A stretch of DNA of 64,000 nt from Parcubacteria bacterium RAAC4_OD1_1 (lineage in GTDB: Bacteria; Patescibacteriota; Minisyncoccia; Phycocordibacterales; UBA9973): NCBI GenBank assembly GCA_000505065.1, contig AWSN01000001.1, forward strand, positions 385-64,384, in the 5' to 3' direction. Shown here piece after piece: positions 3,502 through 62,634 of the stretch (the stretch's first letter is position 1; each line of letters begins with the position of its first letter). The translations under genes and the position numbers were made by a program. The notes under the pieces were generated by a model, which searched no databases, was not told where the DNA came from, and saw only the letters and a list, made by a program, of their open reading frames with translations.

Positions 3502-3516
3502 CACCCCGTTAGAGAT
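3490..3516. terminator. hairpin (11-bp stem) overlapping the stop codon of the GIY-YIG gene; likely bidirectional terminator between NYN and GIY-YIG genes
   Basis: Perfect inverted repeat CTCTAACGGGG/CCCCGTTAGAG with a 4-nt loop. AT-rich flanks. Confidence 0.4.
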
Positions 3517-6427: not shown

Positions 6428-6624
6428 TTAGAGCCGGACCGCGACGGCGGGAGGCGGGTGAGGAAGCGAATACTTGAAGTTTCCGCAAGACCTTGAATAT
6501 TTTTTAATAAAAATGTGAAAGGTGTACAGAATCTGTAAGATTCGCGGAAATTTTCAACAGAAAATTATCCGTGACAAGGTGACTTTGAAATAAAATCATT
6601 TTGGTACTGGGATTACATCTCACA
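6428..6624 (+). other. GC-rich non-coding stretch after rplL (candidate small RNA or vestigial leader), ends at the intrinsic terminator 6625-6650
   Basis: No ORF. Local GC is far above background (CCGGACCGCGACGGCGGGAGGCGGGTGAGGAAGCG). Long-range complementary TTTCCGC(6479-6485)/GCGGAAA(6544-6550). Direct repeat GGTGACTTT at 6421 and 6578. Confidence 0.25.
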
Positions 6625-6650
6625 AAAAACACCCTTTACAGGGTGTTTTT
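6625..6650 (+). terminator. rho-independent terminator (AAAAACACCCT-TTAC-AGGGTGTTTTT)
   Basis: 7-bp GC-containing stem flanked by an A-run and a T-run. Confidence 0.65.
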
Positions 6651-6670
6651 TGTGGCATATAATAGACCTC

Positions 6671-7292: not shown

Positions 7293-7316
7293 ATGCCCCG
7301 GCCGAAGGCCGGGGCA
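7293..7316 (+). terminator. hairpin ATGCCCCGGCC-GAA-GGCCGGGGCAT
   Basis: Perfect 11-bp GC-rich stem directly after the stop codon. Weak T tail (GTTTCC). Confidence 0.5.
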
Positions 7317-7421
7317 TGTTTCCCCCTATACCCAAATTCTTTATAGAATGATATAATAATATTGTACTTGGAAGGGTCGAACTTTGTAAGTATCTTATTA
7401 TTTTTTGTATTTAATTTAATT

Positions 7422-8114: not shown

Positions 8115-8146
8115 GAATATTCTTAAGAAAAAATAAGTTAGATAAA

Positions 8147-8179
8147 CTGCCCCGCAGGCAAAGCCTGCGGGGCAGTTTT
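8147..8179 (+). terminator. rho-independent terminator CTGCCCCGCAGG-CAAAG-CCTGCGGGGCAG + TTTT
   Basis: 12-bp perfect stem followed by a T-run. Confidence 0.7.
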
Positions 8180-12306: not shown

Positions 12307-12342
12307 AGAGTAATGGAATTTTTTTATTGAATAAAAATAACA

Positions 12343-12384
12343 AAACCCCATACTTGGGAGCTCAGCTCCCAAGTATGGGGTTTT
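12343..12384 (+). terminator. long hairpin AAAACCCCATACTTGGGAGC-TCA-GCTCCCAAGTATGGGGTTTT terminating the rRNA unit; core is REP-1
   Basis: 19-bp perfect stem with A-run/T-run flanks. Central 21 nt are identical to the palindrome copies at 32.8 and 33.0-33.5 kb. Confidence 0.65.
12353..12373. repeat. REP-1 palindrome copy 1 (CTTGGGAGCTCAGCTCCCAAG)
   Basis: Exact 21-mer. Four full copies plus one partial copy in the window. Confidence 0.8.
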
Positions 12385-12436
12385 GACTTTTGTATTTTAT
12401 GGGTATATAAAGTAGATAAATTTAAAATATATTACC

Positions 12437-14988: not shown

Positions 14989-14997
14989 TTGATATTT

Positions 14998-15056
14998 CCA
15001 TAGGTCCGACCTATGGACAAAGTTTTAAAATAAAAGCCCATAGGTCGGACCTATGG
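14998..15056. repeat. REP-3 doublet: two inverted copies of palindrome CCATAGGTC(C/G)GACCTATGG (14998-15016 and 15038-15056) separated by 21 nt (REPIN-like)
   Basis: The two units are reverse complements of each other, differing only at the central base. The stem CCATAGG/CCTATGG is shared with REP-2 at 61 kb. Confidence 0.6.
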
Positions 15057-15098
15057 AAACAAATAAAAATTCTCAAAGTAAGGCTTTGGGAAAATAAT

Positions 15099-18961: not shown

Positions 18962-18994
18962 GGTCCCGCCCCAGCCTTTGGCTGGGGCGGGACC
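18962..18994 (+). terminator. hairpin GGTCCCGCCCCAGCC-TTTG-GCTGGGGCGGGACC after secF
   Basis: Perfect 14-bp GC-rich stem. Weak T tail. Confidence 0.5.
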
Positions 18995-25395: not shown

Positions 25396-25419
25396 TGAGC
25401 TAGGCAAGACCTAGCTCAG
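25396..25419. terminator. hairpin TGAGCTAGG-CAAGA-CCTAGCTCA between convergent-less genes
   Basis: Perfect 9-bp stem. The loop and top of the stem (AGGCAAGACCT) are identical to the hairpin at 28961-28985. Confidence 0.4.
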
Positions 25420-28937: not shown

Positions 28938-28960
28938 TTTTAACATTTAATTTTATTTAA

Positions 28961-28985
28961 CAGAGTAAGGCAAGACCTTACTCTG
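28961..28985 (+). terminator. rho-independent terminator CAGAGTAAGG-CAAGA-CCTTACTCTG + TTTTATTT
   Basis: Perfect 10-bp stem plus T-run. Followed by extended -10 (GGTGTTATAAT) for murI. Confidence 0.6.
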
Positions 28986-29026
28986 TTTTATTTAACTATA
29001 AAAAGGATAGGTGTTATAATACTTTT

Positions 29027-32813: not shown

Positions 32814-32834
32814 ACTTGGGAGCTCAGCTCCCAA
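32814..32834. repeat. REP-1 palindrome copy 2 (preceded by a 9-nt partial duplicate CTTGGGAGA at 32804-32812)
   Basis: Exact CTTGGGAGCTCAGCTCCCAAG, 30 nt upstream of the RAYT-1 start. Confidence 0.8.
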
Positions 32835-32864
32835 GTTAAATGAAATAAAATTTTTATATAAATT

Positions 32865-33527
32865 ATGAGAAATTTAAAATTTGCAAATAAAGAATATTAT
32901 CATATTTATAATAGAGGAACAGACAAAAGAGATATCTTTTTAGAGAAAGAAGATGTCTGGCGTTTTTATAAAAGTTTGATTTTACTGAATTCTGTAGAAA
33001 AGATAGGGAGTTTATATGAAAATTCATTTAAAAAGAAGAATAAAATTAAACTTGGGAGCTCAGCTCCCAAGTTAGTGAATATTGTGGCTTATTGTTTAAA
33101 TCAAAATCATTTTCATTTAATTTTAGAGCAAGTAGCTGATAATGGTATTTCAAAATTTATGCATCGCTTATCTACTGGATATACTAATTATTTTAATGAG
33201 AAAAATAAAAGGACCGGATCTTTATTTGAAGGGAGATATAAAGCTAAACATATATCTTCAAATGAATACTTACTTCATTTAGGGGTGTATGTGAATTTAA
33301 ATGATAGGGTACATAAAGGAATGAATAAGGAGTGGATGAAAGAATTACCCTTTTCTAGTTTTAATGAATATGTAAATAAAAATATAAAAGGTATATGTAA
33401 GAAAGATATAATTCTTGGTCAATTTAAAAATGAGAAAGATTTTATTAAATACTGTCTTGAAGTTTTGCCAATTATAAAAAAAAGAAAGGAAGATTTAAAA
33501 GAGTTCAAAAATATCTGTATAGAATAA
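32865..33527 (+). CDS. REP-associated tyrosine transposase (IS200-like, COG1943 Y1/HUH family), RAYT-1
   Basis: YHIYNRGTDKRDIFLEKEDVWRFYKSL..., ...VAYCLNQNHFHLIL (HUH), ...KRTGSLFEGRYKAKHISSNEYLLHLGVYVNLN... (catalytic Tyr region). Flanked by inverted REP-1 copies. Confidence 0.65.
   Translation: MRNLKFANKEYYHIYNRGTDKRDIFLEKEDVWRFYKSLILLNSVEKIGSLYENSFKKKNKIKLGSSAPKLVNIVAYCLNQNHFHLILEQVADNGISKFMHRLSTGYTNYFNEKNKRTGSLFEGRYKAKHISSNEYLLHLGVYVNLNDRVHKGMNKEWMKELPFSSFNEYVNKNIKGICKKDIILGQFKNEKDFIKYCLEVLPIIKKRKEDLKEFKNICIE
33051..33071. repeat. REP-1 palindrome copy 3, located in frame inside RAYT-1 (encodes KLGSSAPKL)
   Basis: Exact 21-mer. 21 nt is 7 codons, so the reading frame is preserved. The paralogue RAYT-2 lacks these residues at the aligned position. 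Confidence 0.8.
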
Positions 33528-33529
33528 TC

Positions 33530-33550
33530 ACTTGGGAGCTGAGCTCCCAA
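33530..33550. repeat. REP-1 palindrome copy 4, inverted orientation (CTTGGGAGCTGAGCTCCCAAG)
   Basis: Central CTGAG versus CTCAG shows it is the reverse complement of copies 1-3. Lies 3 nt after the RAYT-1 stop. Confidence 0.8.
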
Positions 33551-33606
33551 GTGAATGGATTTTGGTGTAAATTTGAAAATAAGTTTAAAAATGCTATATT
33601 ATAAAG

Positions 33607-34332: not shown

Positions 34333-36270
34333 ATGAAGATTAGTTACAATTGGCTTAAAAGATATATAAAAGAAATTCCAAAAGAAGAAGATTTAGTAAA
34401 TCTTATTACATTTAAAATTTGTGAATTGGAATCTGTGGAAAAATCACCAAATGGTGATACTGTTTTTGATATGAAAATTTTACCAGATAGGGCGCATGAT
34501 TTGCTTTCTCATTATGGTGTTGCCAAAGAAATTGCTGGGATTTTGGGGATAAATATAACAGAGATTGATCAGAATATTCATTCTGAGAGCACGAATATTT
34601 CCTTGCTAGGAAATAACTCTCTCCGGCCAAGTCGGCCTGCGCAAGGCTCTCCAGAAGAACATTCCGCTTCGCTTACTTCAGGATTTGAAGATTTAAAAAT
34701 TGACGTAGAATCTCCTTTATGTAGAAGATATATGGGGAGAATAATTAGAGATATTGAGATTGGAGAATCTCCTTTGTGGATGAAAGAATTGCTCGAAAGT
34801 GTGGGACAGAGAAGTATAAATAACATTGTAGATATAACAAATTTTATACTTTTTGACAAAGGACAACCAATTCATGCTTTTGATTTAGATAAACTAGAAA
34901 GTGAAAAATTAATAGTGAGAAATGCCAAAATTGGAGAGAAGATAAATTTGCTTTCATATGAAAATTTAGGTAAAGAAAGAATTGTAGAATTAAGTGAGAA
35001 TAATTTAATAATCGCAGATGAAAAAGACCCGGTGGCTATCGCCGGAGTAAAGGGTGGCACAAAAGCTGAAGTAGATAAAAATACTAAAAATATTTTGATA
35101 GAGGTGGCAAATTTTGATCCAGTCTCTGTAAGGAAAACTGCAAGAGGTTTTGGTATTCAGACCGATGCTGTAAAAAGATTTGAGAATGAAATTATTCCTG
35201 ATTGGTGTAGCCCTGTGATGAATGAAGTTTCTTCTTTAATATTGGAAACTTGTGAGAATGCAAAATTAGAAAATATTGTAGATTTATATAATGAGAAAAA
35301 AGAAGAGAGGAAAATCACTTTCAATAGAGGATACATATCTAAAGTTTTGGGAGTAGAAATTAAAAATGAAGAAATAGAGAAAATTTTAAAAAATTATAAT
35401 TACAAATATAACTTTTTGCACAAGTCCGACTTGTGCGAAGTTGATATGTGGGAGATGGTGGTGCCGAAAGAAAGATTAGATATTAGTGGTGGGCACGATA
35501 TGGCAGAAGAGATAGGTAGAGTTTATGGGTATGACAAAATAGCATCTGTTTTGCCTGATTTGAAACTAAATCATAAAGATAGTGATACTTGGACAAAAAT
35601 TTGTTTAGCTAAAAATAAACTTGTAGAAGATGGCTATAAAGAAGTAATGACTTATGCTTTGGTAGAAAAAGGAGAAGTCGAAATAATGGCTAGTGCTTCG
35701 GATAAAAATTTCTTACGTACAAATTTATTAGATGGACTTAATAAATCTTATGAATTAAATAGACTCAATGCTCCGTTTTTAGAAATGCCAGAAATTAAAA
35801 TTTTTGAAGTTGGGACTGTGTTTACAAAAGATGGAGAAGAAATGCGTGTGGCTTATGTTGATAAAAAAAATAAAATTGAGATGAGTTTGGATAAATTTAT
35901 AGAAAAAGAATTTTCATCAGATTTTTTGCGGGAAAAGGCCTTGCCTTTAGAATCCCCAAGGCAAGGCCTTGAGGAGCAAAAAACTTTCAAGCTCTGGAGT
36001 AATTATCCATTCATAACGCGTGATGTCGCTGTGTGGGTGTCTACAGAAAAAGATGGAGAAGAACTTTATAAAATATTAAAAGAAAATGGGGGAGAATTGC
36101 TTATAAAAGATCCATACCTTTTTGATAAATTTACAAAAGGTGAAAAAACTTCATATGCATATCGATTAATTTTTCAATCTTATGATAGAACTTTGAATGA
36201 TGATGAAATAAATGAAATTTTGAATAGAATTTATGAGAAAATTAAACTAAATGGATGGGAGATAAGATAA
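34333..36270 (+). CDS. pheT: phenylalanine--tRNA ligase beta subunit (short form, 645 aa)
   Basis: N-terminal MKISYNWLKRYI, B3/4 and B5-like regions. C-terminal FDV-domain ...ITRDVAVWV.... Contains three GC-rich palindromic islands in frame. Confidence 0.8.
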   Translation: MKISYNWLKRYIKEIPKEEDLVNLITFKICELESVEKSPNGDTVFDMKILPDRAHDLLSHYGVAKEIAGILGINITEIDQNIHSESTNISLLGNNSLRPSRPAQGSPEEHSASLTSGFEDLKIDVESPLCRRYMGRIIRDIEIGESPLWMKELLESVGQRSINNIVDITNFILFDKGQPIHAFDLDKLESEKLIVRNAKIGEKINLLSYENLGKERIVELSENNLIIADEKDPVAIAGVKGGTKAEVDKNTKNILIEVANFDPVSVRKTARGFGIQTDAVKRFENEIIPDWCSPVMNEVSSLILETCENAKLENIVDLYNEKKEERKITFNRGYISKVLGVEIKNEEIEKILKNYNYKYNFLHKSDLCEVDMWEMVVPKERLDISGGHDMAEEIGRVYGYDKIASVLPDLKLNHKDSDTWTKICLAKNKLVEDGYKEVMTYALVEKGEVEIMASASDKNFLRTNLLDGLNKSYELNRLNAPFLEMPEIKIFEVGTVFTKDGEEMRVAYVDKKNKIEMSLDKFIEKEFSSDFLREKALPLESPRQGLEEQKTFKLWSNYPFITRDVAVWVSTEKDGEELYKILKENGGELLIKDPYLFDKFTKGEKTSYAYRLIFQSYDRTLNDDEINEILNRIYEKIKLNGWEIR

Positions 36271-36350: not shown

Positions 36351-36368
36351 ATAATATAATTGTATTTT

Positions 36369-39300
36369 ATGTTCAAAAAAGATAACAAATTAAAAGAAAA
36401 AATAAGTAAAATATTGCCACGTTTTTCTGTGCATTATGTTGCTTATTCTGTCTCATTTCTTTTTGTTGTTTTTTCTATTATTCACATTGTGTCTGCTACG
36501 ACTCCAAACCCAGGGCATCCTTGGAGTGAACTTGGTGATGGAGTCTTTTCTGTGACTTACAATCAGACTGCTCCACGTACTTATACATTTCCAGATGCAA
36601 ACGCAACTGTACTTACTACCAATGCCCCTGTGACTGTGGCTCAGGGAGGGACAGGACTTACAACAATTGCATCAGGATCAATCCTTGGTGCTAATTTAGC
36701 AAACACACTTTCTGCCATCACTTCTACAACAGGGACAAAAGTTCTTACAAATACAGATGGAACAATTAGTTGGGAAAATGAGCCAGACTCTATGGTTTAC
36801 CCATCTGCTGGGATTGCGGTTTCTACTGGCTCTGCATGGGGGACATCGATCACATCATCATCTCTATTAATTTCAAATATTTCAGATGAAGTTGGAACCG
36901 GGTATTTAGTCTTTAATGATTCACCATCTTTCACAACAAAAATTACAACACCACTTATACTCGGTGGAACTTCTACTACACAAGATTTATCTTTCCAAAC
37001 AACATCTGGTATTGGAGCAACAGGTGCTGATATGCATTTCAAAGTAGGGAATAATGGAGCAACTGAAGCGATGACGATTTTGAATAATGGGTATGTGGGA
37101 ATCGGGACGACGGGGCCAAGCGATAAGTTATCTGTAATAGGAGGAAATATTGCAATAGATGCTAGTTCAAAAATATATAATGGATCAGCTGCGGATAGTG
37201 CCGGTATAAGATTTCCAAGTTCTGTTACAGATATTGCTGGTTATAATGGAATAATATTTAGATCTAGCACAGTCGGAATAGCATCACAGACAGAAAGAAT
37301 GAGAATAACAAATACTGGCTCCGTCGGTATTGGGACGACGGCACCTACAGCGGTACTTCACCTAAAAGCAGGAACTGCAACAGCGGGAACTGCACCGCTT
37401 AAATTAACAAGCGGAGTAAATTTAACAACAGGAGAAGCAGGGGCAATGGAATACGATGGTGTAGAATTATATTTCACACCAAGTGGAACAACAAGAGAAA
37501 CTATTGCATATCTTTCTGATCTAACATCTGGATTAACTGGATATGTACCTTATACTGGTGCAACTACAAATGTAGATTTAGGGGTTCATAACTTAACTGT
37601 TGATACAAATACTTTGTTTGTTGATTCTGTGAATCATAGGGTGGGAGTGGGGACGACGACGCCAACTTATCTTTTGACTTTGAAAAGTCCAGCTTCTAAT
37701 ACAATATCTTTTTCTCTTGAAAAAACAGGAGCAACAACAACACCAGCATTGACTGCTTACGAGGGTTCTTCAACTCAAGGAGTAATGAATTTTTATGATA
37801 ACGGAAGTGCAATAGGAGCAAAAATACAAGGATATGGTGATTCATATTTTAACGGCGGCAACGTCGGAATTGGAACGACCTCTCCATTCTCTCCTGCATC
37901 AATAAATAAAGTGTTGAATATATACAAAGATACTGGTAGTGTTGGTCTTAATTTATCCGTTGGTCTTGAAGATTACGAAATAGCAAACGTTGCTGGTGAT
38001 TTGTGGTTTATAGATGATAATTCTACAAAAATAGTTGTAAAGAATACATCTGGCAACCTCCTCATTAACACTACAACCGACAACGGAGTTGACAAATTGC
38101 AGGTTAACGGCTCATTATCCACAGTAGGAAATGTGAGAGTTAATAAAAGAACAGATGCTTATAGGTATGTTGATATTTATAGTGATAATGTATATGGGTA
38201 TATACAAGTTAAAAGAGGAGATACAGATGCTGTAAGAGAATTAATTTTACAACCATCTGGTAGTTCTGTCGGTATCGGCACCACATCTCCCACCGCTGTA
38301 CTTCACCTAAAAGCTGGTACAGCCACCGCAGGCACTGCACCACTTAAACTAACAAGCGGAGTAAATTTAACAACAGGAGAAGCAGGAGCAATGGAATACG
38401 ATGGGACGGATCTTTTCTTTACCCCATCTACCACAAGAGAGACAGTAGCATTCTTGAGCGACATTACGGCTTCTGCTCATAATCCCGTCACTCTAGGTAC
38501 AGCAAACGGTCTCTCACTATCTACTCAACAACTCTCTTTAGCTCTAGCTTCTACTTCTACAACCGGTGCTCTTTCTTCTACAGACTGGAATACATTTAAC
38601 AACAAACAAGCAACTCTAGTATCTGGAACAAACATTAAAACAATCAACAGTGCTTCACTTCTAGGTAGTGGAGATATCGCTTTACAAACTCCACTTGTCG
38701 CTGATACTGATTACTTAACTCCAGGGACAGCAAGTTCTACGTATGCTCTTGCAACTAATGGTACATATTATATAGAAGGAACGGGGACTGTCGCTGGGAC
38801 ATGGCTCGGAAGTCATCCAAATATAACTTCGTATTATGATGGTTTGACTGTTCGATACTACACACCAATTGCTGGAGCTGCTACAACAACTTTAAATATA
38901 AATAGTCTTGGGGCCAAAACTATTTATTATGCTGGTGCAACCAAACTCACTACTCATTACCCAGCTTTGTCTGTTATTACTTTGACTTATTCTGCAACAC
39001 AAAATGGAGGGTCTTGGTTTGTTCAACCTTTTTATGCTGATGGGAATGAATCTTATACAGTTAGATGGAGCTCTACTCTTCAAGCCGGAGCTCCTATCTA
39101 TGATTACAAATTGGTAATGTTTGGAGCAAGTGATGGAAAAGTTTATCCTTTAACATTAGAAACAGGAACGGCTACAACGAAAACAGTTTCTAGTGTTGAA
39201 TTCAATCCAATGTCACCAGTTTTGTATTATGGTTCTACTACTGATATTGCTCTTGATGGAACATCTGCTTCTTATTGGTATGAAGGTGTGACTTCTGCTA

Positions 39301-42300
39301 ACTTACATTACACTGCAAACCAAGCTTCTGGGTGGACGGCATATACACCAATTTATATTAAAGGAACGATAACTTCTAGTGGAAATTTCTTACTAGCTGG
39401 AGCTGGAACTGTTGGCGGTACGGCTTTCTTAACTCAAACTCTTCCGACTACAGAAGATGGATTTGTTTATATGCTTTTGGGTCATACTTACAATACAACC
39501 ACTGCCTTTAGATTGACAACCAGCCATCCGATTTATGAATATAAAGGAGGAAAATTAAGACCATATACAAATGAAGCAGATACGTTAGATAGTGTCCTTG
39601 TAAGAGGAGCAACAACAGATGAGACCCCAACATTTTCAAATGCAACTTATTCAGCATTGTTTACGGGGGGAAATGTCGGGATTGGGACGGCGACACCAGG
39701 GGCGAAATTGCACATATCATCTGCAAGTGATAGTGATATTTTACTTGAAACGACAGGTACGAGCACAGGAGCAAGATTAAGATTAAAAAATTCTGCGAGT
39801 GAGTGGTATTTATACAACAATCAAGCAAATGGAATTTTGAAGTTTTATGCTGGAGCAGATAAATGGACTTTGGATACGAGTGGTAATGTTATACAAACAG
39901 GAAATTTGATAGTTCAGGGAACTGGGAACACAACAATAGCTGGCTCCGTCGGGATAGGCACCACCACTCCCACCGCTGTACTTCACCTAAAAGCTGGAAC
40001 TGCGACCGCAGGCACTGCTCCACTTAAATTAACAAGTGGAATAAACTTAACAACACCAGAAGCAGGAGCAATGGAATACAATGGAACAAGTCTATTCTTC
40101 TCTCCATCTACAACAAGATATCAAATACCATTTGCAACAGGAACAAATACAATATTCTTCACAACAACAGGAGCAACTAATGTCACACTTCCTACAACAG
40201 GAACACTTGCAACAACTGCAAATATTCCTACCGCTGCTAACCCATCAGCTACAATCGGACTCACAGCTGTAAATGGATCCGCTACAACATTTATGCGTTC
40301 TGATTCTGCTCCAGCTCTATCTCAAGCAATCGTTCCTACATGGACAGGAATACATACATTTAGTGCAATCCCTGCCTTCAACGGAGGAACATCTGGCTCC
40401 ACTGCTCCATTTAGTGTTGATTCAAATACTTTAGTTTCAAATTTGAATGCTGATTTGTTGGATGGACATGATACTGCATACTTCCAAACAGCACTTACGA
40501 ATCCTGTCACAGGGACGGGGACACTAAATTATGTTCCAAAGTTTACAGCTACAGGAACTACAATAGGCAACTCCTTAATTTTTGATAATGGAACGAATGT
40601 GGGGATTGGGACGACGACATTAACTGAAAAATTAACCATATCAGGAAATATAGATTTACCCGCTACTAATAATTGGAGGTATATTAAAAATTCTGCAACT
40701 AATGGTGGGCTTAGAATTGGTACAGGTAATAGTTCGGGGGTCTATACAGATGGTATAGAGGTTAGTTCTGGTGGCAGTTATGTTAAATTAAATCATAATA
40801 CGACAGTTACTGGAAATTTATATACTACAGGCAACGTCGGCATAGGGACGACGGCACCATTGAGTGCTCTAAATGTTGCAGGACTCACAGGAATTAATTG
40901 GGTAACTGCGGGCAATTCATATGGACTTGTTACTATTGGTACGCAAGGCACAATGGGAGGTGCTTTGTGGGTCAATACACCATCACTAAACGCCAGTAAT
41001 GCATCAGGTTTGGGAATAACTGGTTCATATGATGCCTCAAAAGTTTCTGTAGTTAATGTTAATGCGTATGGAGTGTATGCTGCTACCTACGGCTCAGCAT
41101 TAGCATTTTCAACTTCTAACGGAACTGCTTTGTCAGAGTGGATGAGAATTGATAAAAACGGCAACGTCGGGATTGGGACGACAAACCCATCAGCAAGATT
41201 AACTATTCAAACTGCGAATGCATCTTCTACTGGTGGTATTCGATTATTAGGAATAACTACTCCTACTGATATAAGTTATTGGGGGGAAACAGAATTGGCG
41301 ATGCAGTATGGTGGTGTTTATAAAAATGTAATTAATAATAATGGGGTTTCTTATTTTAATGGAGGTAACGTAGGAATTGGAACGACCTCACCAACAGCAG
41401 CTCTTCATTTAAAAGCCGGCACCGCCACCGTAGGCACTGCACCACTTAAACTAACCGCAGGTACAAACCTCACTACCGCTGAAGCAGGGGCAATGGAATA
41501 CGATGGGACAGATTTATTCTTTACTCCATCTACAACTAGAGAAACAGTAGCATTTATGAGCGATCTAACATCTGGGTATATCCCTTACACAGGAGGAACT
41601 TCAAATGTAGATTTAGGAGCTCATAATCTTACAGTAGATACAAATACATTATTTGTAGATAGTGTGAATCATAGGGTGGGGGTGGGGACTACTTCACCTG
41701 CTTACAAACTTGATGTGAATGGAGTTATGAGATTATCAACAACCACAGGTGATGTCTTTAGACTAGAAGGAAGCACCACTAATGGATATACAGATTTATT
41801 ATTTACTGGTAATGGAAATAATAATTATATATATAGTTTTGGTAGTTCTTATACTACAAATGGTAGATATGTTGGTGGCTCACAACTTATTGATGCTACT
41901 GGTTCTGGTGGTTTAGGTTTGGCAGCTTCAGCAACAGCAGGGACTATAAGATTTTATACTAATGCAAATAATGAGAGAATGAGGATAGATTCTTCTGGCA
42001 ACGTTGGTATTGGGACTACAACGCCAGACGGAAAATTAAACATAAGTAATGGTAGTATGAATACTTCTCGTGAGTCTGTAAACCATTATAGAGATGTAAT
42101 ACATTATAGTGGTGCTGCTTCTGTTACAGGAACGATGCAGATTACTATGCCATCAACAAAATTATGGTCTAATACAATGATGACAGTAACTATTAAGGGG
42201 TATAATTATAGTGCCCATGGAGCATGGGAAGCTGTTATTTCTGGATACAATTATAGCTCTACTTCACAGTGGTATAATTATACCGCTGAAATTAAAGGTA

Positions 42301-45300
42301 AAGCTCCATTTACTTCTATTAGACTTGCAAGTAATGGCACGAGTAATGTTATTTTACTTGGCACAACAACTACAGTTTGGGTTTATCCAAAAATAGAAGT
42401 CACTGATGTGATTACAGGCTATAGTAGTAATACAGGTTGGGGAGAAGGTTGGTCTATTACTCCAATTATAGATGAAGCTGCAATTGTAAATGCTGTTACT
42501 CCAACTATTCCGTATTTCTTAAATAATGTAGGCAATCTTGGGATTGGAACGACGACGCCGGGTACAAAACTTGATGTTGTGGGTGGTGCAATACGAACAG
42601 ACAATCAATTAATTTCTACAATTGTTACGGGGACATCTCCACTTTCTGTTGCTTCAACAACTTTAGTTTCTAATTTGAATGCAGATTTGTTGGATGGATT
42701 GCATGCTTCATCGTTTGTTACTTCTAGTAGTATTTCAGGAACACAAAATTATGTTTCTAAATTTAATGCCGCAGGGACGGGAGTAGTTAATTCACAGATT
42801 TTTGATAATGGAACGAATGTGGGGATTGGGACGACCAATCCTGATAGTTTTCTTGATGTAAGTGGTAGTGCTTCGGGAGGTAAAAGTCTTAGATTAAGAA
42901 GTGGTGATTCAGCAGGTACTCCTGCAGATTCTACTCAAATTCTTTTTTCTTATGGAGGAACTAATGAGTATTCTCATAATATAAGAACAAGACATGACTC
43001 TGGAGCTGCGGCTAACAATGCAATCGATTTTTATACATGGAATTATGGAGTAGATACATCTACTACAACAGGAACAAAACACATAATGACATTAGGTGGA
43101 ACAGGTAATGTCGGGATTGGGACGACGAGTCCACAGGCAAAATTGCACGTTTCAGGGAATTCATTTTTAGGTACATATTATGCAAACAATACAGCTATTA
43201 CTGATGCAGAAGTTATTACTGCTGGAGAAAATAAAATACTTAGTAATTTAACAAGAGGTAACTTAGATATAACAATGACATCTGTTCTTAATCCTGCTCC
43301 TGACTATGGTGCTTCTTTAACTTTTACTACTAATGCAGGTAATTATGGTACCGGTTATTATTATGTTGGTGGAGCTATTAAAACAGGTAGAACGAGTGGT
43401 GCTAATCAAAACCAAGCGCAATACATGTCGTTTTATACTAATAATGGTACTTCTTTGAGTGAAAAATTAAGAATTACACATGATGGCAACGTCGGAATTG
43501 GGACGACAAGTCCAGAAAGTATTTTACATCTTAGTAAGAGTGCCGCTGGCACATCAGGTCCTATTTTATTCTTAGATAATCCTTCTGCTTCTACTCTTGG
43601 TAGTTCTAGTGATATTAATTTTGCAACTTGGTCTGGAGAGTCTGCTACTACACCTGGAGCAAAAATAAGTTTAGTTAACACAGCGGCTGGAAGTGGTGCT
43701 AATGCTTTTACTTTTTATACTAAAAATACAAGTGGAGTTGTCGCAGAAAGAGTTAGGTTTGATTCACAGGGTAATGTCGGAATTGGAACGACGGGGCCGG
43801 GTACAAAACTTGATGTTGTGGGTGGTGCAATACGAACAGACAATCAATTAATTTCTACAATTGCTACGGGGACATCTCCACTTTCTGTTGCTTCAACAAC
43901 TTTAGTTTCTAATTTGAATGCTGATTTGTTGGATGGGATTAGTTCTACAAGTTTATTTAATAATATGGGACAAAATCATTCAGCACAAACAGATTTTAAT
44001 TCTATAACAGATTTTGGTACAAGATTTGTACAAGGTATTACAAATGGACCAGGGACAGGTTCATCACAATTTTATAGTTTGAATCTTGGCTTGGGAAATG
44101 ATTATGCATTTAGTTCATATGCAATGCAAATTTCAATTCCTAGATATACTGGAACTGATAAATATATATCATTTAGAACAAGAGAAGCTGGAGTATGGGG
44201 AACTTGGTCAAAAATAAGTGCAGGATATGCAGATACAGCAGGAAATGCAGATACTGTGGATGGATTACATGCGAGTGCATTCCAAACAGCACTTACGAAT
44301 CCTGTCACAGGGACGGGGACATTAAATTATATTCCAAAGTTTACAGCTACAGGATCTACAATAGGCAACTCCTTAATTTTTGATAATGGAACGAATGTGG
44401 GGATTGGCACAGCAACACCTAATCAACAACTTGAAATTACTAAAAACTTTAGATTGCCCGCCACCACTTATAATGCTGGTTCTCCCTATGGAATAATTTA
44501 TAAAGATGGGAATAGGTTTATTCACGACTTTAATTACGGAAATAATGGGACAGTGACGACTGCTGGACAGAATACTTTTATAGGTGTTAATGCTGGGAAT
44601 TTGACTATGGGTAGTACTGCTACATCAGTTTCCCATTCGTCATATAATACAGCGGTAGGTTATGTTTCTCTCTATTCCAACACCACAGGATACGCTAACT
44701 CTGCTATGGGGCATTATTCTCTTTTTGCTAATACCACAGGATACGCTAACTCTGCACAGGGGGTTAATTCTCTCTACTCCAACACTGGAGGATACAATAA
44801 CTCTGCTGTGGGATATTATTCTCTCTATTCCAACACTACAGGAAACCACAACTCCGCAATGGGTGTTAATTCTCTCTACTCCAATACTACAGGCTGGTAC
44901 AACTCAGCATTAGGTTATCAAGCAGGAAGATATATTGCTGATGGAACAACAGGTAGAACTACAGGTAACAACGGACTATATCTCGGATACAATTCTAAAG
45001 CTAGTGCAGATGGGACAACTAATGAAATAGTGATAGGGTATAATACTATAGGTGCTGGAAGTAATACCGCTGTCTATGGTAATACTTCAATGACTAAGCA
45101 TATATTTAGTAATGGTAACGTCGGTATTGGGACGACAAGTCCGGGGGCTATTTTATCTTTAGGTAGTTCTGCTGCTTATCAAAAGCTTTTAGTTTTTGAA
45201 TCTGGAAATACAAAAGCTGGCTTCGGACTTACTCCAACTGGAGATTTTAGATCTTTTACTCCAACAGGGACTACTTTGTCTTTTGGTCATATGTCTACTA

Positions 45301-47501
45301 CTGACGGTTCTACTTATTCAGAAAATATGAGTATTAATTCTTCTGGAAAAATTTTAATGGGTGCAACTTCCGACGCTTCAACATCTAGATTATATGTTTC
45401 AGGATCTACTACTTCAAATGGATCAACGACTGCTATTGCGGGTATCTTGGGAGATTATTCATTAAGTAATGGTGGAGGAGCAAGCTATGTACAAGTTGGT
45501 AATAGATTTGTTATCACAAATAGTCCTACTACAAATCCAAATACTGCTGTTGGAGAAATTGTAAGAATGGTAGACAATACAACTCTTGCAAATTTAGTTA
45601 GAGGTCTTGATATTACATCTAATGGAGGTACGAATACTGCAGGGACAAATACAGGACTCCGTGCAAGTGGTGCAACATTTGGTATCCAAGGTGTGACCAC
45701 AGCTCTCGCTGGAGGGGTGTCAGTACCTGCTGCTATTTATGGAGAAAGTACAGGAACAACCCAAGGAGATATCCTTAGACTTTATTCAGATACTGTGACA
45801 TCTGCTCCTTCTTTTGCAACATTCTACCATAATACAAGTACATTTACGGGGACTGGTCTCCTTATGGATTTTGCAACAGGTTCAGGATCGTTTACTGGAA
45901 ATTTTGCGGATTTTCAGAAGAATAATGCATCCTTATTTAAGGTCACCAATACGGGTGTTGTAAGTATGGGTCTTAGTGCTACTTCTTCTACAACAGCAGT
46001 ATGTTCTAGTTTGGCTACTTCTACTTCTCCAACTGCAGGAATTGCTTATGAAATCCGTGATTGTAGTGGAACCCCTGTCGCTGACTATGCCGAGATGTAC
46101 CCAGTTGAAGAAGATGTAACTTATGGAGATATAGTTATAGCAGGAAGTGAGATGATAAATACTTATGATACTACAAATGGAGAAATAGACTGGGATAAAG
46201 TAAAAGCAAAAATTCCTAAATTAAAGAAATCAAGTAAAGCTTATGATAGAAAGGTTGTGGGAGTGGTGTCAGATAACTATGGGGATTTTAGTTCGGTGGG
46301 TTATAACCTAAAAGATGAAGACAATCCTAAACCAATAGCGCTTAATGGGCGTGTGCCTGTAAAGATTTCTCCAAATTCTTCTTCTATACAAATAGGGGAT
46401 TATATTACTACTTCTAATGATATAGGTAAAGGAATGAAGGCTATAAAGGCAGGCTTTGTGATAGGTAAAGCACTTGAATCTTGGGATAATTCAAATCCTA
46501 CAGAAACAATTATGATATATGTAGAGCAGGGATATTATAATGGTGAATCTATTTCTGATTTTCTTGGAATTGTTATAAATGAATCTCCTGTTGATACTGA
46601 AAATATTGAAGTCACCGAAGATGATTCATCTATACTTATTTTAGACAAGCTTCTTTCTTATAAAGAAGAAATAGATACAGAAAATTTATCAGAAATATTT
46701 ATGGACAGACTTGTCGCTGGACTTGAAATAATAACTCCTCGTGTAGTTACAAATAACCTTTATATTAAAGAGGAATTTACAATAGATGGTTTATCTTTCT
46801 TTAATGGAGATTCCACTTTTGCAAATAGTGTCTTGTTTAAAGATATTGTTTCTTTTGAAGTTCCTCCATTATTCAATAAAGATACAGCTGGGTTTGCTAT
46901 TATAAGAGAAGGAGCCTCCCGTGTGAGAATCACTTTTGAAAACTCATATGTTTCTACACCAGTTGTGACATCTTCTGTTTCATATGAAGGAGAAGAAGGT
47001 AATAGCGAGATAGATACAAATTTATTCTTTGAAGAAGATATAAAATACGTTATAACAGAAAAAAGTCAGGACGGATTTACTATTGTCCTTAACAAAGAAG
47101 CTCCATTTGATGTAAAATTCTCTTGGATAGCACTCTCTGTTAAAGATTCAAATATTTTTGAAGGATTAATTGGAGGAATTGAATTTGATAATATATCAAA
47201 TGTAAATAATATTGAAGAACCTAATATATCTTTAGATGGAGAAGTTGCAGGAGAAATAATAACTGAGAATTTATCTGAAAATACTACAGGGGAAGTTTTA
47301 AATGAAGAAGTAATTATTGAAACGATAGAAGAATCATCAATGACAGAAGAACCTATGGTAAATATAAATGAGGAAGTTATAATAGAAGAAGGTGGAACAA
47401 TAAACGAAGTTGTACCTACTGAGACAGATACAAGTATAGATACAAGTACAGATACAAATACAAGTACAGATACTACTAGTCAAGAAGAAGTTGTAATTTA
47501 A
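36369..47501 (+). CDS. giant (about 3,710 aa) secreted/anchored repeat protein, tail-fiber/trimeric-adhesin-like
   Basis: N-terminal TM anchor. About 20 copies of G(N/S)VGIGTTxPxxxLxV. Four copies of a roughly 55-aa unit AVLHLKAGTATAGTAPLKLTSGVNLTTGEAGAMEYDG..LFFTPSxTTRET. 15-aa YadA-head/phage-fiber-like repeats (YSNTTGYANSAMG...) at about 44640-44900. Acidic C-terminus. The track start (36360) is TTG, so ATG 36369 is used. Confidence 0.8.
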   Translation: MFKKDNKLKEKISKILPRFSVHYVAYSVSFLFVVFSIIHIVSATTPNPGHPWSELGDGVFSVTYNQTAPRTYTFPDANATVLTTNAPVTVAQGGTGLTTIASGSILGANLANTLSAITSTTGTKVLTNTDGTISWENEPDSMVYPSAGIAVSTGSAWGTSITSSSLLISNISDEVGTGYLVFNDSPSFTTKITTPLILGGTSTTQDLSFQTTSGIGATGADMHFKVGNNGATEAMTILNNGYVGIGTTGPSDKLSVIGGNIAIDASSKIYNGSAADSAGIRFPSSVTDIAGYNGIIFRSSTVGIASQTERMRITNTGSVGIGTTAPTAVLHLKAGTATAGTAPLKLTSGVNLTTGEAGAMEYDGVELYFTPSGTTRETIAYLSDLTSGLTGYVPYTGATTNVDLGVHNLTVDTNTLFVDSVNHRVGVGTTTPTYLLTLKSPASNTISFSLEKTGATTTPALTAYEGSSTQGVMNFYDNGSAIGAKIQGYGDSYFNGGNVGIGTTSPFSPASINKVLNIYKDTGSVGLNLSVGLEDYEIANVAGDLWFIDDNSTKIVVKNTSGNLLINTTTDNGVDKLQVNGSLSTVGNVRVNKRTDAYRYVDIYSDNVYGYIQVKRGDTDAVRELILQPSGSSVGIGTTSPTAVLHLKAGTATAGTAPLKLTSGVNLTTGEAGAMEYDGTDLFFTPSTTRETVAFLSDITASAHNPVTLGTANGLSLSTQQLSLALASTSTTGALSSTDWNTFNNKQATLVSGTNIKTINSASLLGSGDIALQTPLVADTDYLTPGTASSTYALATNGTYYIEGTGTVAGTWLGSHPNITSYYDGLTVRYYTPIAGAATTTLNINSLGAKTIYYAGATKLTTHYPALSVITLTYSATQNGGSWFVQPFYADGNESYTVRWSSTLQAGAPIYDYKLVMFGASDGKVYPLTLETGTATTKTVSSVEFNPMSPVLYYGSTTDIALDGTSASYWYEGVTSANLHYTANQASGWTAYTPIYIKGTITSSGNFLLAGAGTVGGTAFLTQTLPTTEDGFVYMLLGHTYNTTTAFRLTTSHPIYEYKGGKLRPYTNEADTLDSVLVRGATTDETPTFSNATYSALFTGGNVGIGTATPGAKLHISSASDSDILLETTGTSTGARLRLKNSASEWYLYNNQANGILKFYAGADKWTLDTSGNVIQTGNLIVQGTGNTTIAGSVGIGTTTPTAVLHLKAGTATAGTAPLKLTSGINLTTPEAGAMEYNGTSLFFSPSTTRYQIPFATGTNTIFFTTTGATNVTLPTTGTLATTANIPTAANPSATIGLTAVNGSATTFMRSDSAPALSQAIVPTWTGIHTFSAIPAFNGGTSGSTAPFSVDSNTLVSNLNADLLDGHDTAYFQTALTNPVTGTGTLNYVPKFTATGTTIGNSLIFDNGTNVGIGTTTLTEKLTISGNIDLPATNNWRYIKNSATNGGLRIGTGNSSGVYTDGIEVSSGGSYVKLNHNTTVTGNLYTTGNVGIGTTAPLSALNVAGLTGINWVTAGNSYGLVTIGTQGTMGGALWVNTPSLNASNASGLGITGSYDASKVSVVNVNAYGVYAATYGSALAFSTSNGTALSEWMRIDKNGNVGIGTTNPSARLTIQTANASSTGGIRLLGITTPTDISYWGETELAMQYGGVYKNVINNNGVSYFNGGNVGIGTTSPTAALHLKAGTATVGTAPLKLTAGTNLTTAEAGAMEYDGTDLFFTPSTTRETVAFMSDLTSGYIPYTGGTSNVDLGAHNLTVDTNTLFVDSVNHRVGVGTTSPAYKLDVNGVMRLSTTTGDVFRLEGSTTNGYTDLLFTGNGNNNYIYSFGSSYTTNGRYVGGSQLIDATGSGGLGLAASATAGTIRFYTNANNERMRIDSSGNVGIGTTTPDGKLNISNGSMNTSRESVNHYRDVIHYSGAASVTGTMQITMPSTKLWSNTMMTVTIKGYNYSAHGAWEAVISGYNYSSTSQWYNYTAEIKGKAPFTSIRLASNGTSNVILLGTTTTVWVYPKIEVTDVITGYSSNTGWGEGWSITPIIDEAAIVNAVTPTIPYFLNNVGNLGIGTTTPGTKLDVVGGAIRTDNQLISTIVTGTSPLSVASTTLVSNLNADLLDGLHASSFVTSSSISGTQNYVSKFNAAGTGVVNSQIFDNGTNVGIGTTNPDSFLDVSGSASGGKSLRLRSGDSAGTPADSTQILFSYGGTNEYSHNIRTRHDSGAAANNAIDFYTWNYGVDTSTTTGTKHIMTLGGTGNVGIGTTSPQAKLHVSGNSFLGTYYANNTAITDAEVITAGENKILSNLTRGNLDITMTSVLNPAPDYGASLTFTTNAGNYGTGYYYVGGAIKTGRTSGANQNQAQYMSFYTNNGTSLSEKLRITHDGNVGIGTTSPESILHLSKSAAGTSGPILFLDNPSASTLGSSSDINFATWSGESATTPGAKISLVNTAAGSGANAFTFYTKNTSGVVAERVRFDSQGNVGIGTTGPGTKLDVVGGAIRTDNQLISTIATGTSPLSVASTTLVSNLNADLLDGISSTSLFNNMGQNHSAQTDFNSITDFGTRFVQGITNGPGTGSSQFYSLNLGLGNDYAFSSYAMQISIPRYTGTDKYISFRTREAGVWGTWSKISAGYADTAGNADTVDGLHASAFQTALTNPVTGTGTLNYIPKFTATGSTIGNSLIFDNGTNVGIGTATPNQQLEITKNFRLPATTYNAGSPYGIIYKDGNRFIHDFNYGNNGTVTTAGQNTFIGVNAGNLTMGSTATSVSHSSYNTAVGYVSLYSNTTGYANSAMGHYSLFANTTGYANSAQGVNSLYSNTGGYNNSAVGYYSLYSNTTGNHNSAMGVNSLYSNTTGWYNSALGYQAGRYIADGTTGRTTGNNGLYLGYNSKASADGTTNEIVIGYNTIGAGSNTAVYGNTSMTKHIFSNGNVGIGTTSPGAILSLGSSAAYQKLLVFESGNTKAGFGLTPTGDFRSFTPTGTTLSFGHMSTTDGSTYSENMSINSSGKILMGATSDASTSRLYVSGSTTSNGSTTAIAGILGDYSLSNGGGASYVQVGNRFVITNSPTTNPNTAVGEIVRMVDNTTLANLVRGLDITSNGGTNTAGTNTGLRASGATFGIQGVTTALAGGVSVPAAIYGESTGTTQGDILRLYSDTVTSAPSFATFYHNTSTFTGTGLLMDFATGSGSFTGNFADFQKNNASLFKVTNTGVVSMGLSATSSTTAVCSSLATSTSPTAGIAYEIRDCSGTPVADYAEMYPVEEDVTYGDIVIAGSEMINTYDTTNGEIDWDKVKAKIPKLKKSSKAYDRKVVGVVSDNYGDFSSVGYNLKDEDNPKPIALNGRVPVKISPNSSSIQIGDYITTSNDIGKGMKAIKAGFVIGKALESWDNSNPTETIMIYVEQGYYNGESISDFLGIVINESPVDTENIEVTEDDSSILILDKLLSYKEEIDTENLSEIFMDRLVAGLEIITPRVVTNNLYIKEEFTIDGLSFFNGDSTFANSVLFKDIVSFEVPPLFNKDTAGFAIIREGASRVRITFENSYVSTPVVTSSVSYEGEEGNSEIDTNLFFEEDIKYVITEKSQDGFTIVLNKEAPFDVKFSWIALSVKDSNIFEGLIGGIEFDNISNVNNIEEPNISLDGEVAGEIITENLSENTTGEVLNEEVIIETIEESSMTEEPMVNINEEVIIEEGGTINEVVPTETDTSIDTSTDTNTSTDTTSQEEVVI

Positions 47502-60981: not shown

Positions 60982-60988
60982 CACTAAA

Positions 60989-61015
60989 TTAGCCATAGGC
61001 CTTGCCTATGGCTAA
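60989..61015. repeat. REP-2 palindrome copy a (TTAGCCATAGG-CCTTG-CCTATGGCTAA)
   Basis: 8 nt after the gyrB stop. Confidence 0.8.
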
Positions 61016-61075
61016 TTTAATTTATAGACATTATTTTAAAAGAGTATTAGAATAATTAAATTTAAAACAAATATT

Positions 61076-61513
61076 ATGATATACAAAGAAAAACCAAAAG
61101 ATTTTACTCCAGATATTGAAGTAGTTGCTTGTTTGGTTGAATTTGATAATAAATTTATTTTATTACATAGACAAGACAACAAGATTCATGGTGGTAAATG
61201 GGGACAACCAGCAGGGAAGGTTGATCCATCAGATTTAAATAGTTTTGATGCTATGGTAAGAGAATTAAGAGAAGAAACTGGGATAATTACCCAAAAAGAG
61301 AATTTGATTTTTTATAAAACTTTTTTTGTTTCTCACCCAGACAGAGATTTTCTTTATCATTACTTTGTTCTGCATCTAAAAGAAAAACCAGAGATTGTTT
61401 TATCAAAAAACGAACACAAAGATTATCTTTTAGTAAAAGCAGAAGAAGCTCTCTGTATGAATTTAATCCCTGATGAGGATTATTGTTTAAAAGATTATTT
61501 TGGTATTAAATAA
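61076..61513 (+). CDS. NUDIX hydrolase
   Basis: Nudix box GGKWGQPAGKVDPSD...MVRELREETGI. Confidence 0.8.
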   Translation: MIYKEKPKDFTPDIEVVACLVEFDNKFILLHRQDNKIHGGKWGQPAGKVDPSDLNSFDAMVRELREETGIITQKENLIFYKTFFVSHPDRDFLYHYFVLHLKEKPEIVLSKNEHKDYLLVKAEEALCMNLIPDEDYCLKDYFGIK

Positions 61514-61528
61514 ATTCTTTAATTATAA

Positions 61529-61554
61529 TTAGCCATAGGCCTTGCCTATGGCTA
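61529..61554. repeat. REP-2 copy b (same orientation as a)
   Basis: TTAGCCATAGGCCTTGCCTATGGCTA, 26 nt upstream of RAYT-2. Confidence 0.8.
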
Positions 61555-61579
61555 GAGATCTTTATATAATATAGGATAT

Positions 61580-62263
61580 ATGAGTTTTAGGAATGAAAAA
61601 ATATTACCAGATGAATATTGTCATATTTATAATCGTGGTAATGGTAAAAGTAAAATATTTTTAGACAAAGAAGATTATGATCGTTTTATTAAGATTCTTT
61701 TTATTTGTAATTCAAAAAATAAATTTGTTTTTCGTGAATCTATTATAAAAAGTAAAATAAATGCATGGGATTTTGAAAGGGGGAATAGATTGGTAGATAT
61801 TGGAGCTTGGGTATTGATGCCAAACCATTTTCATATTTTATTGATTTCTTCTAGCCATAGGCAAGGCCTATGGCAAAAAGATTTAAATCCTATTTCTATA
61901 TTTATGCAAAAAGTTTCAACTGCTTATGCTATGTATTTTAATAAAAAATATAATAGAACAGGTTCGTTATTTGAAGGAAAATTTAAATTAAAAAATATCC
62001 ATAAGGAAAATTATTTAGAATATTTGTTTTCATATATACACTTAAATCCAATAAAATTAATACAAAAAGATTGGAAAGAAAATGGAATAAAAAATAAAGA
62101 TAAAGCATTAGAATATTTAAATAAGTTTAAATATTCTAGTTATTTAGATTATAAAAATCCTAATAGGACAGAAAGTAAAATATTAAATAAAGAATTTTTT
62201 CCAGAATCTTTTGATAATATAAATAATAAAGAACTAATTAATATATTTACTTCATATGTATAA
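61580..62263 (+). CDS. REP-associated tyrosine transposase (IS200-like Y1/HUH family), RAYT-2
   Basis: Paralogue of 32865..33527: YCHIYNRGNGKSKIFLDKEDYDRFIKIL..., ...GAWVLMPNHFHILL (HUH), ...NRTGSLFEGKFKLKNIHKENYLEYLFSYIHLNP... Confidence 0.65.
   Translation: MSFRNEKILPDEYCHIYNRGNGKSKIFLDKEDYDRFIKILFICNSKNKFVFRESIIKSKINAWDFERGNRLVDIGAWVLMPNHFHILLISSSHRQGLWQKDLNPISIFMQKVSTAYAMYFNKKYNRTGSLFEGKFKLKNIHKENYLEYLFSYIHLNPIKLIQKDWKENGIKNKDKALEYLNKFKYSSYLDYKNPNRTESKILNKEFFPESFDNINNKELINIFTSYV
61852..61875. repeat. REP-2 copy c, in frame inside RAYT-2 (TAGCCATAGGCAAGGCCTATGGCA encodes SSHRQGLWQ)
   Basis: Inverted orientation (loop CAAGG). The paralogue RAYT-1 is about 9 aa shorter here. Confidence 0.75.
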
Positions 62264-62274
62264 AATAACCATAG

Positions 62275-62300
62275 TTAGCCATAGGCAAGGCCTATGGCTA
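62275..62300. repeat. REP-2 copy d, inverted orientation (loop CAAGG)
   Basis: TTAGCCATAGGCAAGGCCTATGGCTA, 12 nt after the RAYT-2 stop. Confidence 0.8.
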
Positions 62301-62331: not shown

Positions 62332-62634
62332 TTATTTTTCCCCTTTTAATATTATTCTTTTTTCGAAACCGCCTTTTTCGTTTAGTTTATTTATTCTAAC
62401 TTCTTCAACATTGGAGAATTCGGGAAATTTTTTTAATGATTCAATTACTTCTATGATATCTGCAAGTTCTTCAGAATTTTTATCTTTTATAAATTCTTTT
62501 ATTTCCTCGTCTAATTTTTTTATTAGTTCTTCTCTGTATTCTTCTTCGTTTGCTATTCTTTCTTCATAAGGTATATTTTTTGAACTTAAATATTCGGGAA
62601 TTTTATCTCTAACTAATTTATTATATTTTTCCAT
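62332..62634 (-). CDS. MazG-like (all-alpha) nucleoside triphosphate pyrophosphohydrolase, putative
   Basis: YNKLVRDKIPE...EE..EELADIIEVIESL pattern of small house-cleaning NTP-PPases. Confidence 0.45.
   Translation of the reverse strand: MEKYNKLVRDKIPEYLSSKNIPYEERIANEEEYREELIKKLDEEIKEFIKDKNSEELADIIEVIESLKKFPEFSNVEEVRINKLNEKGGFEKRIILKGEK

Follow-up and report, generated by a model that had tools for sequence, protein, structure and literature searches.

A hairpin inside a Parcubacteria RAYT gene evolves in concert with the hairpins that flank the gene

Why does the gene of a transposase-like enzyme carry, within its own reading frame, the same palindrome that flanks it? This question is raised by a locus in a 64,000-nucleotide stretch of contig AWSN01000001.1 from the ultrasmall Parcubacteria bacterium RAAC4_OD1_1 (33% G+C; the whole stretch is referred to below as the window). 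Here, a gene for a tyrosine transposase associated with repetitive extragenic palindromes (REPs), which we call RAYT-2, is accompanied by four copies of a palindrome, REP-2, one of them inside the gene. RAYT genes flanked by inverted REPs, termed REPtrons, have been described in E. coli, Stenotrophomonas and Pseudomonas (PMC2817692, PMC8266576, PMC5581495). We compared the window with DNA loci of related RAYTs, which are designated by L-numbers (for example L151 and L155); the sample of loci for which DNA is available is small. On balance we favor the interpretation that the locus is a vertically inherited RAYT in a unit of three hairpins, the inner one being old, homogenized with the flanks of its own locus, and likely a cis site for the enzyme.

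REP-2 is a 25-nt palindrome, TAGCCATAGGC-CTT-GCCTATGGCTA, or its complement with the loop AAG. The four copies, named a to d in Table 1, all fall inside 1.3 kb, and none would be expected by chance (100 shuffles). Copies b and d, upstream and downstream of RAYT-2, are mutually inverted. Copy c is read in frame as S-S-H-R-Q-G-L-W-Q (residues 91–99), beginning five residues after H83-F-H85, and its final CTA is replaced by CAA. The existence of the four copies, the in-frame position of the inner one directly after the HUH motif, and the difference between the inverted flanks and the palindrome of the other RAYT of the window, RAYT-1, had all been recognized in an initial annotation, with coordinates that were 1 nt low. 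Folded as single-stranded DNA, the four copies reach −10.5 to −15.6 kcal/mol (z = −4.2 to −8.1 relative to shuffled controls). The feet of REP-2 in the window read TTAG or CTAG, and the tetranucleotide GTAG is absent from them; at other loci the feet are CAGCC, TCCCC or TTTCCC, so that no common tag is found outside the palindrome.

The census of REP-2 in the source genome covered about 92 kb, namely the 64-kb window, 8 kb beyond it (L001) and 20 kb of L152. No fifth copy was found in the window with up to three mismatches allowed, and none in the adjoining 8 kb or in the 20 kb of L152. The dispersed REP-2 family presupposed in the initial annotation could therefore not be shown. In other genomes, the REP-2 core is found away from RAYT genes. 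A scan of genome contigs gave 66 matches, mostly single ones, in unrelated and often G+C-rich taxa.

In the related loci, hairpins occur at three fixed places: just before the ATG, 19–47 nt downstream of the HUH codons, and at the stop codon. Most of these loci share the inverted arrangement of the flanks. With perfect stems required for detection, the inner hairpin was intact in 21 loci, and in every one of them the seven bases of its stem next to the loop match a flanking REP of the same locus at 7/7 positions, compared with a mean of 4.1/7 against the flanks of other loci. These loci represent 17 distinct arms, and none of 100,000 permutations reached the observed sum. Examples of stems common to the inner copy and a flank are GCCATAGGC in the window, CAGCCCTAGGC in L157, TTTCCCATAGGC in L071 (27 nt identical), GCGGAAGC in L072, TTCCCCTACTC in L083 and AACCGGGAGGC in L137. 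Two of the three copies in L151, and all three in L154, show a double change from CATAGG to CACAGG; this looks like copying and not like parallel mutation. Because identity among the copies ends at the edges of the palindrome, the copied unit would be the hairpin itself. Judged from these comparisons, the inner and flanking hairpins evolve in concert through complete turnover of the stem between lineages. This tracking of the flanks by the intragenic copy had been missed in the initial annotation.

Comparison of the loci also indicates that the inner copy is kept as a nucleic-acid hairpin rather than as a peptide. In an alignment of 33 nt from 19 loci, anchored on the peptide motif only, 84.7% of the cells are standard pairs, compared with 69% after shuffling and 27–48% when the pairing partners are slid. 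Ten of the 11 stem pairs have changed on both sides, and in some compensations one of the two changes is synonymous, as where TCC to TCG accompanies W to C. At the protein level, the combination of H with W or C was counted 94 times and that of P with G 17 times, as against five mixed cases, which is the expectation from CAT/ATG and CCT/AGG pairings. In more distant members of the clade the peptide is unrecognizable (PRKQGFRK, SPTLGVGE, SPKSNFG), yet a perfect stem of 7–12 bp stands at the inner site. When peptides were assessed for their compatibility with a palindrome, a stem of at least 10 bp was feasible at the site after the HUH motif in 83% of cases and in 8% of control windows. As a detector working on proteins only, this assessment was rejected as too permissive to prove a hairpin without the DNA.

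The inner hairpin is old. A word-indexed search counts 7,436 homologues in the family, and clustering at 50% identity gives 11,312 representatives. Essentially all of the 120 closest homologues (57–93% identity) have a segment of the SHRSDLW, SHRQGLW or SPRQGLG type at its site, and these peptides are encoded by palindromes, for example CAT AGG TCC GAC CTA TGG for HRSDLW. The spacing between the HUH motif and TxYxxYFN, surveyed in 107 parsed representatives of clusters at 50% identity, is 22 residues in 94 of them and longer in 13. It measures 31 residues in RAYT-2, an excess of nine residues or 27 nt. As in other in-frame palindromic elements, the frame is kept, and the encoded loop (residues 94–99), which follows the HUH strand, is one of two internal loops with a pLDDT below 50 in the predicted model. 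Presence among orthologues is not sporadic, the insert occurring throughout one clade: in a simple neighbor-joining tree of 87 RAYTs with known DNA, calculated with the insert columns masked, all genes with a hairpin after the HUH motif, decayed ones included, group together. Since they form one clade, the simplest history is a single old insertion, and the inner hairpin is ancestral to one RAYT clade of the Patescibacteria. The sister clade lacks the insert, and its genes are flanked by REPs of the AGG-TCTTG-CCT type, which argues that the flanks preceded the inner copy and speaks against the earlier proposal that the REP was born from the gene.

The enzyme itself is a RAYT-like member of the Y1 HUH family, as had been annotated. 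In addition to the invariant motifs listed in Table 1, an AlphaFold (AF2) model with a pLDDT of 82.9 places the HUH motif on a strand (E83–90) and Y152 in a helix (H143–160); the catalytic role of Y152 is presumed from the family. In the PDB, Foldseek ranks the E. coli REP-associated transposase in complex with a REP hairpin first (4er8_A; E 1.1e-5; TM 0.64 on the target); among the HUH enzymes, IS608, ISDra2 and IS200 TnpA come next. An identical, uninterrupted RAYT-2 protein is encoded on five contigs; the frame is therefore not an artefact of assembly. No second near-identical copy of RAYT-2 is present in the window, where the sole other match is RAYT-1 at about 40% identity. Among viral contigs, a scan for relatives of RAYT-2 returned two distant ones only (26% identity).

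The gene order gyrB, small gene, RAYT, small gene, thrS, rpmF, nusB, rnc, smc is shared by the window and by L153, L155, L156, L157 and L158, with RAYT identities of 59–79% at this site across the six genomes. Because the same syntenic site is occupied in all six, RAYT-2 appears to be vertically inherited. Vertical inheritance has been described for RAYTs (PMC5581495), and the gyrB-thrS synteny fits that description. The small genes beside the RAYT vary between relatives (L155, L156, L157) and encode a NUDIX protein, an AAA_18 protein, a sigma-70 factor or hypothetical proteins; in the window they are the NUDIX gene of Table 1 and a gene at 62332–62634. The NUDIX gene is bracketed by direct repeats, copies a and b of REP-2. 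Genes may be gained preferentially at this site beside the REPs, and the NUDIX gene might belong to the RAYT system.

The upstream REP contributes to what looks like the promoter of the gene, its loop and 3' arm providing a −35-like box (Table 1). In 32 of 36 related loci a −10-like box lies 4–13 nt before the ATG, usually 6–7 nt, and this short distance suggests that the transcript is leaderless. Among loci whose upstream REP has a CTTG loop, TTGCCT or TTGCTT is found 16–18 nt from the −10-like box in 16 of 18. If the enzyme bound here, or if the hairpin were extruded, the −35 box would be expected to become occluded. A possible antisense promoter in the inner REP of the window (minus-strand TTGCCT, 18 nt, TAAAAT) was also considered and rejected as a general feature: among 10 loci the arrangement recurs in L155 and L157 only, and the number of promoter-like matches in the inner-REP region (11) does not exceed the chance expectation of 11.5.

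Table 1. Features of the RAYT-2 and RAYT-1 loci in the window.
Feature	Position	Strand	Remarks
REP-2 copy a	60990–61014		Loop CTT on + strand; 9 nt past gyrB stop
NUDIX hydrolase gene	61076–61513	+	Pfam NUDIX, E 3.4e-16
REP-2 copy b	61530–61554		Loop CTT; upstream flank of RAYT-2, 26 nt before ATG
−35-like box TTGCCT	61542–61547		Loop and 3' arm of copy b
−10-like box TATAAT	61565–61570	+	17-nt spacer after TTGCCT; 9 nt before ATG
RAYT-2 coding sequence	61580–62263	+	227 aa, Y1 HUH tyrosine transposase-like
HUH codons (H83-F84-H85)	61826–61834	+	Invariant in 40 aligned homologues
REP-2 copy c, intragenic, in frame	61852–61876		Loop AAG; core 61854–61874, perfect 9-bp stem
Y152 codon, motif SYIHLNP	62033–62035	+	Invariant in 40 aligned homologues; presumed catalytic tyrosine
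REP-2 copy d	62276–62300		Loop AAG; downstream flank of RAYT-2, 13 nt past stop
REP-1 upstream flank, ACTTGGGAGCTCAGCTCCCAAGT	32814–32836		RAYT-1
RAYT-1 coding sequence (DIC38_02625)	32865–33527	+	220 aa
REP-1 intragenic in-frame copy	33050–33072		KLGSSAPKL; ~58 nt before HUH codons
REP-1 downstream flank	33530–33552		Center base G for C

We hypothesize that a single insertion, in the ancestor of one RAYT clade of the Patescibacteria, placed the inner copy in the gene, and that this copy has since been made identical, repeatedly, to the flanking REPs of its own locus. All three hairpins would be recognized by the encoded enzyme. The limit of identity at the palindrome edges suggests that homogenization handles each hairpin as a whole; ordinary homologous recombination does not fit such a boundary. 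The route could be cleavage by the enzyme and strand exchange at the hairpin borders, or template switching between hairpins. As to its role, the inner copy is most likely a cis site that links the gene with its own population of REPs, and it would serve autoregulation or preserve, under the protection of the reading frame, the REP sequence in its current form. More tentatively, we speculate that the enzyme copies REP hairpins in place: it would cut at both feet on single-stranded DNA and swap cassettes among fixed cognate sites, including its own gene and promoter. Under such copying, the in-frame copy would serve as a mark that updates itself and keeps gene and repeat population coupled; it might also be an operator, sensed while the gene is single-stranded at replication. 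If this idea, which we regard as possible but doubtful, is true, in-place copying would be a form of repeat maintenance by a domesticated HUH transposase unlike transposition to new sites.

Several observations weigh against a cis site maintained by its cognate enzyme. Decay of the inner hairpin is seen in L081, L152, L158 and L073, and its stem has a single mismatch in L156, yet the gene and flanks persist in all of these; being lost in several relatives that retain the rest of the unit, the inner hairpin is dispensable. In L158 the flanks are intact under a laxer G+C filter and the inner copy alone has drifted. Conversely, L086 and L096 have an intact inner hairpin and no flanking hairpin detected within 130 nt. 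REP-like hairpins also stand in frame in rnhB and pheT, and a general tendency to keep in-frame palindromes could explain the persistence of the inner copy without a role specific to the RAYT. Finally, RAYT-2 scores below threshold with both family models (Pfam Y1_Tnp, 17.4 bits vs a cut-off of 23; NCBIfam REP_Tyr_transpos, the REP-associated tyrosine transposase model, 41.7 vs 80), and a PDB sequence search with the family profile gave no match at E ≤ 0.01. For these reasons RAYT-2 is assigned to a divergent branch of the RAYT / TnpA-REP family.

Some of these points would be expected if the inner hairpin were a neutral by-product. An old in-frame REP would survive since insertions and deletions break the gene, and its palindromy and its identity with the nearby copies would be upheld without selection, by template-switch correction in quasi-palindromes together with short-tract conversion between copies 300–400 bp apart, with no function for the enzyme. 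The loss of the inner hairpin in about 5 of 29 examined loci agrees with this, as does the persistence of the housekeeping-gene hairpins (in five genomes for rnhB, with the loop flipped), and the encoded loop is disordered and tolerant according to the model. However, even where protein identity has fallen to about 50%, in genomes with a G+C content of 31–36%, and through complete stem turnover, the hairpin persists; this needs active copying. Paralogues within one assembly keep different hairpins without cross-homogenization, and the same design arose at two different protein sites. We therefore consider a neutral origin of the match rather unlikely, if worth keeping in mind.

Alternatively, the in-frame hairpin might act in the mRNA, through translation pausing, stability or protein binding, with the match to the flanks being secondary. 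REPs are known to affect mRNA 3' ends (Di Nocera 2013, PMC3733652), and the downstream REP adjoins the stop codon or overlaps with it. Inner sequences that have drifted can still form an RNA hairpin by means of G-U pairs, with −11.1 kcal/mol in L158 and −10.0 kcal/mol in L152. Among the non-Watson-Crick cells of the inner eight pairs, however, G-U occurs 8 times and other mismatches about 7 times when 5-nt loops are left out; as G-U is not over-represented, nothing favors RNA over DNA as the selected form. Rfam gave sub-threshold matches only, to unrelated families. An intrinsic terminator was rejected because there is no T-run 3' of the inner hairpin. A role in RNA also cannot alone explain the 7/7 identity with the flanking copies in the DNA, the upstream one of which likely precedes the start of transcription, and we regard such a role as improbable.

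A master copy, that is, a frame-protected intragenic template renewing flanking and dispersed REPs, is less credible still. It would account for L086 and L096, and for the inner copy of L070, which is identical at 25/25 positions to an extra upstream copy of the related L152. The flanks came first, however, as the insert-free sister clade indicates, and they survive where the inner copy has decayed; in L151 it is the downstream copy that keeps the more widespread CATAGG stem, whereas the inner copy has changed.

REP-2 does duplicate locally, which lends some color to the idea that, in the source genome, a mobile REP has recently inserted itself into the gene of its own transposase. Copy a, whose perfect stem extends to 60985–61019 (16 bp), has no counterpart in the close relative L155, where no hairpin is listed between gyrB and the NUDIX gene and the two genes are 2 nt apart; copy a is therefore probably a local duplication. 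For the inner copy, an event specific to this gene or genome, as proposed in the initial annotation, is already refuted by the occupation of the same in-frame position in the orthologues at 57–93% identity and in the whole clade of the neighbor-joining tree, and we give it almost no weight. Conservation of an SHRxxLW peptide for protein function, with codon palindromy incidental, can be set aside: the peptide persists in L158 and L081 after weakening of the stem, but it differs completely in other clade members in which palindromy and flank match persist, some compensations are synonymous, and the region is modeled with a pLDDT below 50.

The locus resembles the known REPtrons in its Y1 HUH enzyme, in its inverted G+C-rich palindromes with a 3-nt loop, in the paralogue-specific REP, in the syntenic, vertical gene, and in the co-evolution of REP and enzyme. 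It differs from them in having a third cognate hairpin in frame that evolves in concert with the flanks, in an upstream REP that supplies the −35 box of the gene's promoter, in the lack of a GTAG head and of dispersed high-copy REPs in the 92 kb covered, and in the sub-threshold profile scores. Likewise, the REPIN-RAYT systems of Pseudomonas combine a single-copy domesticated RAYT with cognate, co-evolving repeats, and REP doublets are found here too (14997–15057); there, however, many copies are spread over the genome (PMC3116915), whereas the cognate copies found here are all local to the gene, one of them coding.

With the IS200/IS605 elements (IS608, ISDra2) RAYT-2 shares the catalytic fold and a coding sequence bordered by hairpins, which TnpA recognizes as single-stranded DNA. 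Their chemistry, cutting at hairpin borders and exchanging strands, might in principle allow one hairpin cassette to be replaced by another. The IS200/IS605 elements are mobile, occur in multiple copies and have both end hairpins on one strand, in contrast to the RAYT-2 unit, which occupies one syntenic site and has inverted flanks of one palindrome and a third copy within the open reading frame. REPs inside assorted host genes (intragenic GTAG/CGTC REPs) and the Rickettsia palindromic elements have also been reported (PMC3733652). The RAYT-2 insert is similar to these, as are the hairpins in rnhB and pheT, in being a short in-frame palindrome that encodes a few residues in a tolerant surface loop. 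Unlike those cases, its host gene is that of the cognate transposase, it has become fixed throughout a deep clade, and it is kept identical to neighboring REPs. We found no mention in PMC3733652 of an insertion inside a RAYT gene, and no description in the literature, which our search covered incompletely, of a cognate REP in frame inside a RAYT gene that evolves with its flanks.

With three copies of one hairpin within 750 bp, in the promoter, the coding sequence and the gene end, the locus is a compact natural test system. The hairpin sequences have been rewritten many times, always jointly, which is direct comparative evidence for copying of hairpins as units. The locus further illustrates that a DNA or RNA hairpin of an enzyme's substrate class can constrain the sequence that encodes this enzyme, and the promoter built into the REP suggests a route to autoregulation. 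The same genomes also have REP-like hairpins in frame in housekeeping genes, so that these reduced genomes may harbor in-frame palindromes quite generally.

The initial annotation had suggested that an in-frame copy of the cognate REP is a systematic phenomenon, and the RAYT-1 family bears this out. RAYT-1 and RAYT-2 are indeed paralogues, at 39% identity instead of the estimated ~34%, and RAYT-1 has a three-hairpin design like that of RAYT-2, with the inner copy located before the HUH motif rather than after it (Table 1). The family widely carries LGS[SRL]APK or LRSSTPK variants, and pre-HUH hairpins matching their own flanks were found in RAYT-1 and in eight metagenome loci (two of them near-duplicates). 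A fourth copy of REP-1 lies 20 kb from RAYT-1, inside a 45-nt perfect palindrome at 12341–12385 with a 21-bp stem, CAAAACCCCATACTTGGGAGC-TCA-GCTCCCAAGTATGGGGTTTTG. The source assembly contains at least three divergent RAYT paralogues (39–65% identical to RAYT-2), each with its own REP. The third of these, P0059 (DIC38_00110), is located at L152 and is 65% identical to RAYT-2. It has two upstream REPs and one downstream (L152 9888–9973 and 10681–10703), GCATAGGT-CTG/CAG-ACCTATGC, and its drifted inner hairpin pairs only through G-U.

The rnhB (RNase HII) hairpin has the REP-2 core, GCCATAGGC-CTT/AAG-GCCTATGGC, and is found in frame at the same position of the gene in five other Patescibacteria genomes (L048 3871–3891; L036 3675–3695; L054 2534–2554; L045 213–233; L021 ~1744–1764). 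The orientation of the loop determines whether the encoded peptide is AIGLAYG or AIGKAYG, an alternation which indicates that the loop has flipped between genomes while the stem is identical. In pheT (34333–36270) of the window there is an in-frame hairpin at 35418–35436, GCACAAGT-CCG-ACTTGTGC (LHKSDLC), and an in-frame inverted doublet at 35931–35970, AAGGC-CTT-GCCTT followed by AAGGC-AAG-GCCTT (..KALPLESPRQGLE..). Both sit in regions that are longer or variable relative to pheT of L155, L156 and L157, and the pheT of the window has an additional segment of about 30 residues near residues 78–118.

The window contains further palindromes. A REPIN-like inverted doublet at 14997–15017 and 15037–15057, TCCATAGGT-CCG-ACCTATGGA / CCCATAGGT-CGG-ACCTATGGA, lies in an intergenic region about 45 nt upstream of an open reading frame that begins at 15100. 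The stem of the doublet is similar to SHRSDLW-type REPs of other RAYTs, and a matching RAYT is absent from the window. Two intergenic hairpins, at 25396–25418 and 28959–28987, have the apex AGG-CAAGA-CCT, the REP type that flanks the insert-free RAYT clade (for example L048, L077 and L088) of which the window has no member. Further long, G+C-rich perfect palindromes with stems of 11–16 bp (8144–8178, 18962–18994, 7293–7317, 3487–3516 and 6621–6654) are unrelated in sequence to REP-1 and REP-2, and some of them are probably terminators. The plus strand also contains, at 36360–47498, one open reading frame of about 3,700 residues.

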